From positions 53,754,001-53,818,000 of the forward strand of contig OX597830.1 of the NCBI GenBank assembly GCA_951406725.2: 64,000 nt of DNA, written 5' to 3'. Both the position numbers and the translations under genes were made by a program. Shown in pieces: positions 17,731 through 58,770 of this stretch. Source of the stretch: Octopus vulgaris (taxonomy: Eukaryota). Positions within the stretch are counted from its first letter, which is position 1; each line of letters opens with the position of its first letter. The notes beneath the pieces are model-generated. The model did no database searches and was not told where the DNA came from. It saw only the letters and a program-made list of their open reading frames with translations.

Positions 17731-18272
17731 CCGCGAAGAATCGGCAGCCAATTTCTATAAGGGAGATAGATCTTAAAATATCAATAACGATAACTAGTGA
17801 ATTATACAGAATATGCAGAACGAGGCGAGGCGAGGCTGAAATAGTAAACAGAGTGGCGACTAGGGGGATCAGAATAATAATAATTAATAAATAATAATAA
17901 TAAATAGAGATACGGATGAATTAAAGTTCAAAGATTTCTTATCTTGAGATCACTTCGTTTACGGACAGACTTGGCAAAAGGAATTCGGAATCAAGAATGA
18001 GGCAGTTTACTAGCTTAAGTATGCATAGCCATGGCGGGTGGTAGGAAGAGAGGAGTCCAGACAGACGACAATGTAACAAGAGGGGGAGAGAAGGGAAGAG
18101 AAAAGAAAAACCCCGCGAAGAATCGGCAGCCAATTTCTATAAGGGAGATAGATCTTAAAATATCAATAACGATAACTAGTGAATTATACAGAATATGCAG
18201 AACGAGGCGAGGCGAGGCTGAAATAGTAAACAGAGTGGCGACTAGGGGGATCAGAATAATAATAATTAATAA
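17731..18272. repeat. 160-bp identical direct repeats (17731-17890, 18113-18272), period 382 bp
   Basis: CCGCGAAGAATCGGCAGCC...GGGGGATCAGAATAATAATAATTAATAA present twice with no visible mismatch. Confidence 0.95.
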
Positions 18273-18642: not shown

Positions 18643-19192
18643 ATCATTAAGAAAGAAATGTCCGATTTTCTTGTGCACCAAATTTGACAGTCATTAACTC
18701 AAATGTTTTGTTCTGACAATTCTTTGTTTTGCATCCTTGAAGAATTACATATGTATGCATTAACCAATTAGGTGAAATGATGAGTGATCTTGCAATCAAA
18801 CAACCGAGATTGGTCAATAAAGACACACCAATTCTCTTGCAAGACAATGCTCGACCACATGTTGCACAAAGAACATTACTCAAGTTACAGGAACTGAACT
18901 TGGAAGTACTCTGTCATCCACCATATTCACCAGACCTTGCACCAACCGACTATCACATTTTCCAGGCATTAGACAACGTTTTGCAAGAAAAAAACATCAA
19001 ATCTGAAGAAGATGCGAAAACAGCCTCTTATGATTTCATCACCTCTTGCTCCCCAGAATTCTTTGCTGCCAGCATAAATAAGCTACCAATAAAATGGCAA
19101 AATTGTGTTGATAATTTAGGTGCATTGCTTTTTGTTGAGATAAAGTAAAATAAACTTTCAGTTTAAAATCAGACATTTCTTAATGATCTGAT
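18643..19192 (+). mobile_element. internally deleted mariner with both TIRs and the C-terminal part of the DD34D transposase (ORF 18777-19148)
   Basis: LQDNARPH...HPPYSPDLAPTDYHIF. TIRs CATTAAGAAA..ATGTCCGATTTT and AAAATCAGACATTTCTTAATG. Confidence 0.9.
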
Positions 19193-21784: not shown

Positions 21785-22220
21785 ATTGGCAGAATTGCTA
21801 GCGTGTCTGACAAAATGCTGAATGGCATTTCTTCCAGCTCTTTATGTTCTGAGTTCAAATTTTGCCATGGTCAACTCTGCCTTTCATTTTTTTAGGATCC
21901 TTAAAATAAGTACCAGTTAAATACTGGGATCAATGTAAATCAACTTGCCCTCTTCCCCCACTATATTTCAGAGCTGTGCCTGTAGTGGAAAGACTTAATA
22001 CCATTATTATAATGGTGGTGAGCTGGCAGAATGGTAAGCATATCGGACAAAATGCTTAATTACATTTCTTCCAGTTTTCATTCTGATTTCAAATTCTGCC
22101 AAGGTTGACTTAGCCTTTCATCTTTTTAGGATTGACAAAATAAGAACCAGTTGAATACTGCAGTTGATGTAATCAACTAGCCCTTTCTCACCAAATTTCA
22201 GGCCTTGTACCTAGTAAGGA
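21785..22220 (+). mobile_element. two Nin/Deu-domain SINE copies
   Basis: TGGCAGAAT..GAGTTCAAATT..GCCTTTCAT..AATAAGTACCAG. Confidence 0.7.
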
Positions 22221-22244
22221 TTATTATTGTTGTTAATTTTAGTT

Positions 22245-22543
22245 TGTTACAGTTCGAAAATTTCAGATATGAGGAATTATGTACATTATTTACATTTGAC
22301 GATATTTGTCCTCATCTTGTTTGTTGTTAACACAACGTTTCAGCTGATATACCCTCCAGCCTTCATCAGGTGTCTTGGGGAAATTTCGAACTTGGGTTCT
22401 CATTCCTAAGGTATTTTTCGATGTTGTTATTATTATTATTATTATTCAGGTCACTGCCTGGAATCGAACTCGGAATCTTGGGGTTAGTAGCCCGCGCTCT
22501 TAACCACTACGCCATATGCCCATGGGCATATGGCATAGTGGTT
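22245..22543 (-). mobile_element. tRNA-headed SINE-like element carrying a hammerhead ribozyme, with a 5' fold-back
   Basis: Head 22521-22449 GGGCATATGGCGTAGTGGTTAAG (A box)...GAGTTCGATTCC (B box), then (AAT)n spacer, HHR at 22374-22329 and AT-rich tail. The first ~20 nt of the head are duplicated in inverted orientation (palindrome 22502-22543). Confidence 0.85.
22329..22374 (-). ncRNA. minimal type I hammerhead ribozyme
   Basis: GACAC CUGAUGA A GGCUGG agggUAUA UCAGCU GAAA C GUU|GUGUU: stem I 5 bp, stem II 6 bp, palindromic ACGU stem III. Confidence 0.8.
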
Positions 22544-22564
22544 TATGTTGTTAATATTTTTATT

Positions 22565-22780
22565 AGGGCAGCAAACTGGTAGAATTGTTAGCATGCTGGG
22601 CATGATACTTAGCAGCAATTTCATCAGTCTTTCCGTTCTGAGTTCAAATTCTGCAAGGGTTGACTTTGCCTTTCATCCTTTTGGGGTTAATAAAATAAGT
22701 ACCAGTTGAACACTGGGGTCAATATAATTGACTTATCCTTTCTCCCCAAATTGCTGGCCTTGTGCCAAAATTTGAAATCA
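22565..22780 (+). mobile_element. Nin/Deu-domain SINE, complete (donor flank of the 26712-27137 duplication)
   Basis: GGGCAGCAAACTGGTAGAATTG...GCCTTTCATCC...TGCCAAAATTTGAAA. Confidence 0.75.
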
Positions 22781-25359: not shown

Positions 25360-26036
25360 ACTGTGTGTGTGTGTGAGCATGTGCACTTTTGTTTGTCCCC
25401 CACTGTTGCTTGACAACCAGTTTTGGTGTGTTTATGACTGCATAACTTAGCAGTTTGGCTAACGAGACTGATAGAATAATTACCAGACTTAACAAAAAAT
25501 AAGTACTGGGGTCTATTCATTCAACTAAAAAAGATTTCTTGAAGGTGGTGCCCCAGCATGACCACAGTCTAATGACTGAAACAAGTAAAAGATTAAAAAA
25601 ATATGTTACTTTGTTACTTGTTTCAATCGTTTGACTGTGGCCATGCTGGAACACCACCTTTAATTGAGCAAATCGACCACAGGACTTATCCTTTGTAAGC
25701 TTAGTACTTATTCTATCGGCCTCTTTTGCTGAACCACTAAGTTACGGGAACGTAAACACACCAGCATCGGTGTGTGTGTGTCAAGCGATGTTGGGGGGAC
25801 AAACACAGACACACACACGTATACACACACACACACATACATACATACATTATATATATATATATATATACACACACACATATACACGACGGGCTTCTCC
25901 GTCTACCAGATCCACTCACAAGGCTTTGGTCGGCCCAAGGCTATAGTAGAAGACACTTGGCCAAGGTGCCACGCAGTGGGACTGAACCCAGAACCATGAG
26001 GTTGGTAAGCAAGCTCCTTACCACACAGCCACTCCT
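25360..26036. mobile_element. tail-to-tail CORE-type SINEs (25360-25600 +, 25610-26036 -)
   Basis: Similarity to 11035-11422. Confidence 0.8.
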
Positions 26037-26356
26037 GTGTATGTGCGTGTGTGCTGAAAAAGTTTGGCATTGGCTCATATAGTCCAAGGTTTGTTTTCAC
26101 ACTGAGCATGCTATTGGCTTGCATCCTGTGTGACAGGTAACAGGTTGAACAATATGCCTTGAGTAATACCTGGTAGGGAGAAAACTGGGAGTAGTCCATC
26201 ATGTGTGCGCATGTGAATGTGTTTCCTTTGTCTTGACACATGCATACTGTTCATAAATGAAGCATCACCGTTTATACAAATGACATCATTTATTTGCAGT
26301 TCTCTGCACAAGCATGCCTATGCTTTTTGTTGCTCAATAAACTAGAGAAATATTAA

Positions 26357-27137
26357 CCTTATTTACATTATTTACATTTGACAGATATTTGTCCTCATCT
26401 TGTTTGTTGTTAACACAATGTTTTGGCTGATATACCCTCCAGCCTTCATTAGGTGTCTTGGGGAAATTTCGAAACCTGGGTTCTCATTCCTAAGGTATTT
26501 TTCAATGTTGTTCTTGTTATTATTATTATTATTGTTATTATTATTATATGGAATCGAACTTGGAATCTTGGGGTTAGTAGCTCGCGCTCTTAACTACTAC
26601 GCCATATGCCCATAGTGTAGTGGTTAAGAGCGCAGGCTACTAACCCCAAGATTCTGAGTTCGATTCCAGGGAGTGACCTGAATAATAACGATAATAATAA
26701 CATCGAAAAATAGGATGAAAGGCAAAGTCAACCCTTGCAGAATTTGAACTCAGAACGGAAAGACTGATGAAATGCTGCTAAGCATCATGCCCAGCATGCT
26801 AACAATTCTTCCAGTTTGCTGCCCTAATAAAAATATTAACAACAACATAAACCACTATGCCATATGCCCATGGGCATATGGCGTAGTGGTTAAGAGCGCG
26901 AGCTACTAACCCCAAGATTCCAAGTTCGAATCCAGGCAGTGACCTGAATAATAATAATAATAACAACAACAACATCGAAAAATACCTTAGGAATGAGAAC
27001 CCAGGTTGAAAATTTTCCCATGACACCTGATGAAGGCTGGAGGGTATATCAGCTGAAACGTTGTGTTAATAACAAACAAATATCCGTCAACTGTAAATAA
27101 TGAACATAATTCCTCATCTCTTAAATATAGAACTGAA
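26357..27137. mobile_element. compound HHR-SINE locus: - copy (26357-26611), inverted head (26612-26711), then inverted duplicate of 22245-22679 (26712-27137)
   Basis: Direct sequence comparison. The HHR is mutated in the - copy (CTAATGA, CAAAA) and intact in the + copy. Confidence 0.85.
27022..27067 (+). ncRNA. minimal type I hammerhead ribozyme
   Basis: GACAC CTGATGA AGGCTGG AGGGTATA TCAGCT GAAA C GTT|GTGTT; predicted cleavage after 27062. Confidence 0.8.
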
Positions 27138-27453
27138 ATAAGAACCTATTGCTTAGAAACAGGAAAAGGTTAATGGCAAGAAGAACATCTAGCCACCGAA
27201 AATTTTGCTTTGAGGAAATCTCATCTTACCCATGAAGACATAGAAATGTAGACATTAAAATGGTGATGATGAAGACTTTTAAATTTTGGTTGGTTGGTTG
27301 GCATGACTTACAAGTGATCAGTTTATATATATATATATATAGAAATTGAGGGATTGTAATGATGCTGGTTATGAAGATCTGTGTGTGTGCCTGACCCAGT
27401 GTGTGTGTGTGTGTGTGTATATATGTGCACACATACATACATGCACACCCTTC

Positions 27454-28184: not shown

Positions 28185-28753
28185 TATTGGTTTGTCCGCA
28201 AAGTTCGTGCCGATTTTTAAAGGAAAGAAAAAGGTCAATAAATACTTGCCATTACATTTTTAATCAACCAAATATGAACCATTTTGTTGCACAATGGGTC
28301 TCCATTTTTCCTTTAACTTAAAAATACCCTCTTCCCAGAATTGAGGGGGTTTCATGGCAAAGAATTCATCAAGGTATCTTTTTACGTCATCCAAGGAATT
28401 GAAACTTTTACCATTAATACTATTCTGCAGAGACCTGAATAAGTAGAAATCCGAAGGAGCAATATCTGGTGAATATGGAGGGTGGGGTAACACATCCCAG
28501 CCGAGCTGCAGCAATTTTTGTCTGGTTCCCAAATCATCAAGTGCCGAAAATGAACTTTCTCATCTTTTATTTTAAAGGGTTACAGAATTAACACAGGTTA
28601 TAGGAACGTAAGCCTTTTTCCACGAAAAGATAGCTTAAACTGTACTCTAAATGGAGGTGTAGTCAAATCCTATTTTATGGACTCAAACATGTTCTAAAAT
28701 AAGTCAAAAGATAAGCTACTATAAATTGGCACGAACTTTCCAGGCAACCCAAT
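28185..28753 (-). mobile_element. internally deleted mariner with both TIRs (ORF 28260-28532)
   Basis: LGWDVLPHPPYSPDIAPSDFYLF. TIRs TATTGGTTTGTCCGCAAAGTTCGTGCCGATTT and AAATTGGCACGAACTTTCCAGGCAACCCAATA. Confidence 0.9.
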
Positions 28754-35480: not shown

Positions 35481-36540
35481 GTATAAGGAGCTGTGTAGAT
35501 CCTTTACAGTAGGAAACCTGATGTGTTCTCGCTCTTTCTCTTACACATTATTGCATTGTTCCATAGTGTAAATCTACCTCCCTGTCTACTGTAGTGTTAC
35601 TCAGTCAAAAGGGATCTTAGCCTTGTAGGTTGCATAGTGACCTCACTAATGGTGGTGCCATGAAAAACGTGCCAGGTACATGCTGTAAAGTGGTTAGCAT
35701 TAGGAAGGGCATCCAGCCACAGAAATCCTGCCAAAGCAGACACTGGAGCTTGACGCAGTCATTGAATCTGTCAGATCCTGTTAAGCTGATGATAATTATA
35801 CATGTATTGACACACAAAATGTTTCTGTGTGTGTGTATATGTATATCTATCCAATTATCTATGTATCTATCGACACGTACATGCACATACATATAAAGAT
35901 AGATACAAAGCTAAATAGCTAGAAAGATAGTCATTAGTGTATTGTGTGTGTGTGTTGTCTTCTTCAATAGCATTTGATGGTTTACAGACAACAAACTTGT
36001 ATGACATCCATTTTAATGAGTTGCAGTGAATTTATTCAAAACTACTGGATTAATGATTCTATTCCTGGAACACACAAACAAAACTTCTAATTAAACATAT
36101 TTCATTAACAGGTTCCACATTTCTCCTCCCACTCTGCCCCTTCTCCCTCTCCATTCTCACTCATTTTTCTTTCATTCTTTCCTCTAATCTATCTAAATAT
36201 TTCTCATGTCTCTCTTTCTCCATCTATCCTTCCATCCATCCATCTTTCTGTTTCTTTCTCCATTTAGCTATATCTGTCGAGCGCTTTATCCTTCCTCTGT
36301 CTCTCTCCATGAAAAAATCTGTTCATACTTTGAAGTGTAAAAGTCTCTTCCATTATACCCCACTCAAGAACAATGGCACTCCACTCAACAGCATCTTCAC
36401 CAAACTCAACAGCCACCATACTCCACTCAATAACAGCCAATAAAAAATTATGTATTATAGAATCAAAGGCCACATTATACTATTACTACATACTACACTT
36501 TTACTACACCACATTATACCAAATAAGACACTACACTATA

Positions 36541-36940
36541 TTACATTATTTACAATTGACGGATATTTGCCCTCATCTTGTTTGTTGTGAACACAACATT
36601 TTGGCTGATATACCCTCCAGCCTTTATCAGGTGTCTTGGGCAAATTTCGAACCTGGGTTCTCATTCCTAAGGTATTTTTCGATGGTGTTGTTATCATTAT
36701 TATTATTCAGGTCACTGCCTGGAATCGAACCCGGAATCTTGGGGTTAATAGCACGGGCTATTAACCCCAAGATTCCGAGTTCGATTCCAGGCAGTGACCT
36801 GAATAATAATAATAATATCAAAAAGCTGATGAAGGCTGGAAAGTTGTGTAAACAACAAACAAGATGAGGACAAATATCCACCAATTGTAAATAATGTAAA
36901 TAATGTACATAACTCCTCATCCCTTAAATATACAACTGTA
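36541..36940. mobile_element. head-to-head inverted pair of HHR-SINE copies (36541-36752 -, 36755-36940 +)
   Basis: Same family as 22245-22543. Inversion centred in the tRNA head (GGGGTTAATAGC acgg GCTATTAACCCC). The HHR is mutated in one copy and deleted in the other. Confidence 0.85.
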
Positions 36941-37329
36941 CTATATTACACAACCACACCACAGTACCAGGCTTTTGGGGTTTAGTACTAAGCTCCACTT
37001 ATGTGGTAGGAAGCTGTAAGTGGTGAACTTTTCCCCTTGGCTAGAACACCATAACACAGGTAACACTTACAAGGAGCTCTGGTGGTATGTGATACCTATT
37101 TCTTTCAACAGCTATGTTGAGGACAGTCTGTCTAGAATCTCAGGTGTCCTGCTTACACAAGCATATGAGCTGCATGTAGTTCAGGTATCTTAGCCACACA
37201 ACCACTATATTGCCTCCCCTCCACATACACATTCAAGAAGAAAACGGTTTGAGTCATCGAAGAATTAACACTCTTCCTCTACCTCACTCACTCACTCACT
37301 TACATGCATGCATGTATACGCACATGCAC

Positions 37330-55865: not shown

Positions 55866-56643
55866 ATAATGATAATAATAATAATCCTTTTTACTATATG
55901 CACAAGGCTTGAAATTTGATTTGTTGGGAGAAGGGGATTGTTAATTACATTGCCCCTAGTGCTTGATTGGTACTTATTTTATTGACCCCAGAAGTATGGA
56001 AGGCAAAATCAACCTTAGCAGAATTTGAATTCAGAATGTAAAGAGCTAAAAGAAATGCCACTAAGCATTATGTCTGATGCTCTAACAATTCTGCCTGCTC
56101 ACCACCTTAATAATAAGTAGAAGAAAACATTACTGTGCGTATGAGACCAAATGCATGAGGGCATATGGCCTAGTGGTTAGGACCAGATGGTGTAGCCTGT
56201 GTCTTTGAGCAGAGCACTGAGTATCATATACTATTGCTGGTGTAGTTCTCTCTTCCTGCAGCTGTCACATTTTCAGTGTTCTGCTGGAAGGGCCAACAGA
56301 ATGTTTATGTCTACTCACACCTGCACAGGCACCTAAAACAATTAATGAAAGCAAAGTACTTGTTACCTGGTCGTATTCGTTGCAAGTTATAGATACACAT
56401 GCTTTATGACAGTGTATATATTCCAGTCTTAGAATACATTTACCTGTATTTCTATGTATAAGAGGTGACTAAAAGGGATGACAAGAGGACAGTCACCTAG
56501 TCATAAAACACTCATTCAGAAAACATGCCCAACCCATGCCAGACTCTCTTCTTCCAATTGTCCATTTTTTACTGATCTTACCAATTCTTTCTCTTCCTAT
56601 TGCAGGTAGAATGATGTACTGTTGTGCTGAGAGGCACTAAGGA

Positions 56644-57746: not shown

Positions 57747-58770
<1,024 letters not shown>

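Follow-up and report, generated by a model that had tools for sequence, protein, structure and literature searches.

The window, that is the whole stretch of DNA analysed, comprises 64,000 nt of the Octopus vulgaris genome (GCA_951406725.2, contig OX597830.1, 53,754,001-53,818,000, forward strand). Its GC content is 37%, it has 0 Ns, and microsatellites and short repeats are abundant in it. Three loci, at 22, 26 and 36.5 kb, are occupied by a family of short repeats, and a profile built from copies A-D detected seven arms in the window, all of them at these loci. The letters A, B, C and H denote the copies so marked in Table 1, D and E being the arms of the comparison locus at 36.5-36.9 kb. 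Next to copy A lies a complete SINE, putatively of the Nin type.

Table 1. Repeat copies, captured flank and TSDs at the three family loci of the window.
Feature	Positions	Strand	Description
TSD-like repeat of A, left copy	22224..22245	+	degenerate; exact 10-nt core at 22228
Copy A (donor)	22246..22523	-	tRNA-like head and AAT tract, then a body that includes a minimal hammerhead motif, and a tail of ~33 nt
Inverted arm of A (fold-back)	22524..22543	+	20 nt; palindrome centre CATG
TSD-like repeat of A, right copy	22543..22563	+	carried along into the duplication
Nin-like SINE	22565..22780	+	complete, head-to-head with A; fragment up to 22679 is the capture source
TSD of composite, left copy	26347..26363	+	degenerate, ~16 nt; 5-nt overlap with arm C
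Arm C	26359..26613	-	family copy, inverted, tail-less
H	26608..26711	+	forward head, joined to C at palindromic fold, ends at junction
Captured donor flank	26712..26849	-	~115 nt of Nin-like SINE and ~23-nt spacer
Copied fold-back	26850..26869	-	20 nt, within 60-nt run identical to A (26841-26900)
Copy B	26870..27135	+	head, then body with hammerhead motif at ~27023-27066, and tail of the family type; carries a deletion of 11 nt
TSD of composite, right copy	27135..27150	+	14 matches to the 17-nt left copy
Comparison locus	36535..36950		arm D inverted, tail-less (36542-~36760); arm E forward, tailed, with internal deletions

Head-to-head inverted arms with a palindromic junction were found at all three family loci (3/3), the inverted arm of A being only 20 nt long. 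A, B and E carry the ~33-nt tail; C and D lack it. In the body, a hammerhead-like core has one additional base ahead of stem II, and a palindromic CG takes the place of stem III. The minimal hammerhead pattern is intact in two of the five arms tested, core bases having been lost in C and D, and monomer minimum-energy folds contained hammerhead stems I and II in two of four copies, dimer folds being uninformative. A minimal hammerhead motif has been described for PLEs (PMC4209133), and in the type-I form set out in that paper there is likewise an extra base between residues 9 and 10.1, a palindromic 15.2-16.2 and a short helix I; the octopus motif, itself a predicted one, differs in A and B, where G-U stands in place of the G10.1-C11.1 pair. 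An inverted arm, a one-sided tail and a palindromic junction form a Penelope-type signature (PMC8557442, PMC3846280). From the minimal PLE hammerhead combined with these three features the family appears, by analogy, to work like a non-autonomous Penelope passenger, and it is not filed here as a PLE.

ARAGORN predicted 0 tRNA genes and Rfam, applied to the whole window, returned nothing at gathering score; at E<=5 the region 21.5-28 kb gave 63 matches, all below gathering and mostly to miRNA hairpin models, with no hammerhead or tRNA among them. The putative tRNA origin of the family head is based on A- and B-box-like motifs that were recognised by eye. Also in this region, at 25542-25660, is a MITE-like inverted repeat of ~120 nt with long arms, to which miRNA models match below the gathering score. 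At ~280 nt, repeated and without an ORF for RT or GIY-YIG, the family element has the short (<700 bp), non-autonomous and repeated character by which a SINE is defined (PMC3531059). With its tRNA-like head and Penelope-type features at 3/3 loci the family may be a PLE-mobilised SINE.

The body carries a 42-codon open frame at 36539-36664(-). A first search with the 42-aa frame gave no match and a second gave 25, two of which are named Octopus bimaculoides records, so the family occurs in octopus. An autonomous partner was sought among these matches, and an RT or GIY-YIG domain was present in 0 of the 16 scanned out of 25; one long match (P0023) is a tandem-repeat protein. In O. bimaculoides, an annotated isoform of dystrobrevin beta has a stretch related to the frame as its N-terminal part, which suggests exonisation or mis-annotation. 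A literature search found no paper on a tRNA-headed, hammerhead-bearing, Penelope-type octopus SINE; the family may already have an entry in a repeat database. PMC13282606 reports for O. vulgaris numerous SINE families that are unclassified, and Penelope families with recent activity, its main text making no mention of hammerheads, and Penelope goes unmentioned in the accessible portions of PMC4758252, PMC3531059 and PMC9223172.

Two of the family loci are connected by a longer match, in inverted orientation and over a distance of about 4.0 kb. Global alignment of 26712-27138(+) with 22246-22679(-), coordinates that are good to 1-2 nt, gave 401 identical columns out of 420, with 19 substitutions and seven indel events (one substitution and one gap being terminal), and BLAST gave E=1e-176. 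An earlier note had described the second segment as the reverse complement of 22245-22679; the inverted duplication is confirmed, but the match is one of 95.5% and inexact. What was copied comprises the element, its 20-nt fold-back and 135 aligned nt of flank, together with part of a Nin-like SINE that breaks off at 26712/22679. A 22-nt pattern across the fold-back occurs at two places in the window, in A and B only (0 expected), and the Nin/head junction occurs once. Divergence between A and B climbs from flank to tail, with 2/135 differences in the flank, 3/92 in fold-back and head, 1/29 in the AAT tract, 8/131 in the body and 5/33 in the tail. Four clustered changes in B lie at 27008-27021, and three of them convert an 8-nt palindrome into a perfect 10-nt one.

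The sequence TCAGCT had been taken for a marker of the pair. It is not private to A and B: a CpG at this site is lost from all four window copies that cover it (TG, TG, CA, CA), and TCAGCT is one of the two states produced by the decay; an independent Octopus bimaculoides copy has Leu at this codon, and most other relatives listed have Pro, the DNA state being inferred from the protein. Within the body it is the only variant that A and B have in common, it recurs elsewhere, and the probability of sharing it by chance is ~0.18. The separate family member beside which the copy was said to have landed is likewise not there as an intact copy; it consists of the inverted arm 26359-26613 and a head truncated at the junction (26608-26711).

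That the duplication is an artefact of assembly is hardly credible. Inverted Penelope-type structures are known to trouble short-read assemblies (PMC8557442), and one 160-bp repeat with 100% identity does occur elsewhere in the window; against an artefact are the 19 substitutions and seven indel events, some of them polarised to each lineage, the inverted orientation, the unlike outer flanks and the 0 Ns. The 160-bp repeat is direct (17731-17890 and 18113-18272) and represents either an echo of assembly or a duplication that took place locally and very recently. Another inverted pair, 134-648/5140-5579, was considered as a parallel case and rejected, as it appears to be two old transposon relics with weak matches to the mariner-like fragments of the window.

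The 22-kb locus had been named as the donor, and this holds for the flank and the fold-back. With the 22-kb SINE the captured Nin-like fragment shows 97.4% identity, compared with 74.6-83.9% for 13 other matches (83.5% for the best near-full-length one), and eight bases common to the fragment and the 22-kb SINE are each found in at most one of ten other copies. The donor SINE runs on beyond the cut point at 22679. TSD-like repeats lie on both sides of A (4/400 nulls reach the score, a figure to be read with caution as the repeat is AT-rich), one of them inside the copied part, and together with the complete Nin-like SINE they identify the A locus as the donor of the flank. It is very improbable that B derives from a flank-plus-element copy dispersed elsewhere: such a chimera would account for the variants of B that are absent from A, but the complete Nin-like SINE and both TSD-like copies place the origin at A, a chance return to within 4 kb has a probability of ~1e-5, and no third flank-bearing copy was found in the 64-kb window. 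The look-alike at 56.1 kb was rejected as a third chimera, having a different head, lying 50 nt from another SINE and being without the fold-back. At 56156-56260(+) this different tRNA-like head has the first ~20 nt and the CATG leader in common with the family and stands head-to-head with a Nin-like SINE. Nin-like SINEs also form same-strand clusters at 12.5-13.1 kb, 19.7-20.8 kb, 21787-22780 and 62.8-63.2 kb.

The boundaries of the insertions were examined with an end-anchored TSD test, the nulls of which were 400 AT-matched real windows, and an unanchored test with 3000 nulls. For D..E, where the TSD is an exact 11 nt at 36535 and 36940, the score was reached by 0/400 and 14/3000 nulls respectively; for C..B by 2/400 and 43/3000; for B alone by 86/400 and 236/3000. 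The C..B repeat pairs 17 with 16 nt, with two mismatches and one gap, whereas the candidate for B alone is a weak one of 8 nt with one mismatch. On the contrast between 2/400 for C..B and 86/400 for B alone, the insertion that starts with C most likely has its right end where B's tail ends, and a single TSD-bounded composite (26359-27135) that includes B is a better reading than one in which B is a newcomer beside that insertion. It is possible that B has a short TSD of its own, of 5-8 nt.

These tests bear directly on 5' transduction, a process known in SVA and L1. The earlier note had read B as an independent 5'-transduced retrocopy of A, primed at the 3' end of the element and lying beside C and H or forming their right edge. 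As in SVA and L1 an upstream flank is contiguous with the element in a second place, the match is unbroken from flank to tail, the direction of donation is clear, and a 5-8-nt AT-rich repeat flanks B. This is nevertheless not the best reading and we regard it as improbable. The flanking repeat is non-significant (86/400) and shorter than TSDs elsewhere in the family (11 to ~22 nt), B's right flank matches the left flank of C (2/400), H would be without body and tail unless these came from B, and the landing is local. B's tail is moreover of family type and not of donor type, there are ten B-only substitutions to one A-only, and the element part of B may be of other than donor origin.

Whether all of B comes from A was examined by counting derived substitutions against a majority reference in which six positions were set by hand, with the AAT tract and tail excluded. 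The counts were 2/201 for A, 11/202 for B, 9/202 for C, 4/68 for H and 12/176 for D, those for D and H including changes next to fold junctions, and A is thus the copy closest to the family majority. A differed from B (p=0.02) and B was similar to C (p=0.82), with p=0.06 for A against C. In the element part A-only and B-only substitutions stood at 1:10 (binomial p=0.012); counting the changes in A's tail singly gave 5:10 (p=0.30), and merging clusters and adding indels gave 2:8 (p=0.11). Changes polarised to B numbered 0-1/155 in flank and fold-back against 10/202 in the element (p=0.006-0.027), and a change point between A and B at 27004 separated 6/286 from 13/134 (32/2000 permutations). This evidence loses its significance once clustered changes are merged, the flank-versus-element comparison going to p=0.02-0.14, the change point (changes within 8 nt merged) to 525/2000 and the relative rate to the p=0.11 already given. 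Of the differences in the flank, the two that can be polarised both fall to A; a further one is ambiguous, and another reflects slippage of a microsatellite.

Two head variants, at 26901 and 26922, are common to B and C and absent from A, with a chance probability of 0.05-0.24, and D and E likewise have variants in common. B's tail is of the family type seen in E and in the independent O. bimaculoides copy and differs from that of A. The cluster of changes in A's tail (22250-22270) and its one private body change, at 22392 (in 22378-22395), jointly make an internal inverted repeat perfect, which suggests that a single templated event produced both; this may be a case of quasi-palindrome correction, or A may belong to a young subfamily whose stem is stronger. 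The element part of B looks older than the donor A, and the sequence comparisons lean towards B as a putative mosaic of donor-derived and older sequence, with a crossover that would lie between ~26870 and ~27003. Faster mutation of long inverted, hairpin-forming DNA may mimic the greater age of B.

A DNA-level event, the outcome that the earlier note had set against its own reading, is now the leading model. We think it somewhat probable that a Penelope-type inverted SINE insertion was later patched from its neighbour A by template switching started at homology. A tRNA-headed, minimal-hammerhead, non-autonomous element would first have inserted at 26.35 kb in the usual Penelope-type form, giving two arms head to head within a single ~16-bp TSD, the inverted one without a tail and the forward one with a tail. 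A break that arose later, close to the middle of this long inverted repeat, would then have been repaired by one-sided invasion (gap filling), the right-hand end invading A, the nearest suitable family member, through element homology. Copying would have run across A's head and fold-back, then across one copy of its TSD and on into the Nin-like SINE for ~115 nt, before release and joining to the left-hand end with 1 nt of microhomology. The variants common to B and C would mean either that these two began as sister arms or that conversion from arm to arm took place later; if H was the first partner of C, they require extra conversion or parallel mutation. The truly donor-derived portion of the 430-bp match would be about 160-290 bp.

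One-sided invasion or gap filling is an established repair mechanism, and it explains the products at the two junctions. On the left the captured flank is joined with 1 nt of exact microhomology, which is within chance, and on the right the junction is hidden in family homology. Gap filling also explains the 4-kb distance between A and B, the probability of a random landing within 5 kb being ~1e-5 or less. Of captures inside animal transposons 56.9% had their parent <15 kb away, in most of these cases <5 kb away, and the median microhomology was 2 bp (PMC8277862). The single-copy Pack-TIR capture by gap filling described there likewise involves donor DNA <5 kb away, an intact outer TSD, short microhomology and an apparently single copy. 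Its host, however, is a TIR DNA transposon, not the palindrome of a Penelope-type SINE, one junction here appears to use long family homology, and the prior presence of the host element is here suggested by divergence. An RNA template would leave identical junctions.

An RNA-templated route by a Penelope-type reverse transcriptase is possible and rather unlikely. It could take the form of one composite insertion, in which B is copied from a read-through transcript of A, the template is switched to another head and the product is joined to C, all within one TSD, or that of an enzyme that nicks a resident element and copies nascent A-locus RNA into it. Such a route fits the single outer TSD and the TCAGCT common to A and B. 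It also matches the account of PMC11167929, in which cleavage and extension take place on both strands, the tail is set by two start sites, RNA in uncleaved form is the main template, initiation can be non-homologous and nicking within an element's own pLTR is proposed; with uncleaved RNA usable, the intact hammerhead of B is compatible with it. Host DNA captured between pLTRs within a TSD has been described (PMC3846280). Against this route, it requires a transcript antisense to the Nin-like SINE and a cis mechanism for the 4-kb distance, its single-event form leaves unexplained both the lower divergence of flank than of body and the family-type tail of B, and published captures have a pLTR as their upstream direct repeat where here there is a 3'-cut head only.

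A host exon or transcript that might supply the read-through RNA was sought with Pfam in 149 of 175 candidate frames and one extra, and none was found among these 150 frames. Above the cut-off the scan detected one RT fragment; below it there were one DDE fragment and further weak matches. Decayed RT fragments and decayed fragments of a DDE, putatively mariner-like, transposase lie at 18741-19148, 28260-28559 and 57748-58761. As to pairing between the copies, the A-B duplex has a calculated energy of -695.8 kcal/mol and the composite's self-fold, with partners a few hundred nt apart, one of -407.6. A dsRNA of A and B would be possible on paper, as for any inverted repeat pair, and B's own inverted arm is a much nearer partner than A. 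The composite is most likely neutral repeat debris, and no function is proposed for it.

The closest counterparts to the architecture of the composite are the Penelope-like insertions and pLTR captures of Adineta vaga (PMC3846280, PMC8557442), which likewise have an inverted tail-less arm, a palindrome at the junction, an outer TSD, a tail of 30-40 nt at one end and host DNA between the repeats. Unlike these, the octopus family has a tRNA-like head and no RT/GIY-YIG ORF, and in the octopus composite the upstream direct repeat is 3'-cut and the captured DNA comes from 4 kb away. Under the patch model that we prefer, the event is a further case of a known process, the capture of nearby DNA inside transposons, and it shows that two repeats may match at 95% without interruption and yet be mosaic, in imitation of transduction. 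The family, in which a tRNA-like head is combined with Penelope-type ends, is of more interest than the single event. It is doubtful that Penelope-type enzymes insert a tRNA-headed SINE as two cDNA arms and can copy a neighbour's nascent read-through RNA in cis; if they do, local 5' transduction and local clustering of family members would be at work in octopus. Were the RNA route true and recurrent, it would provide a natural read-out of how inverted Penelope insertions are assembled, a step described as unresolved by the cited papers, and a route for local shuffling in octopus genomes.
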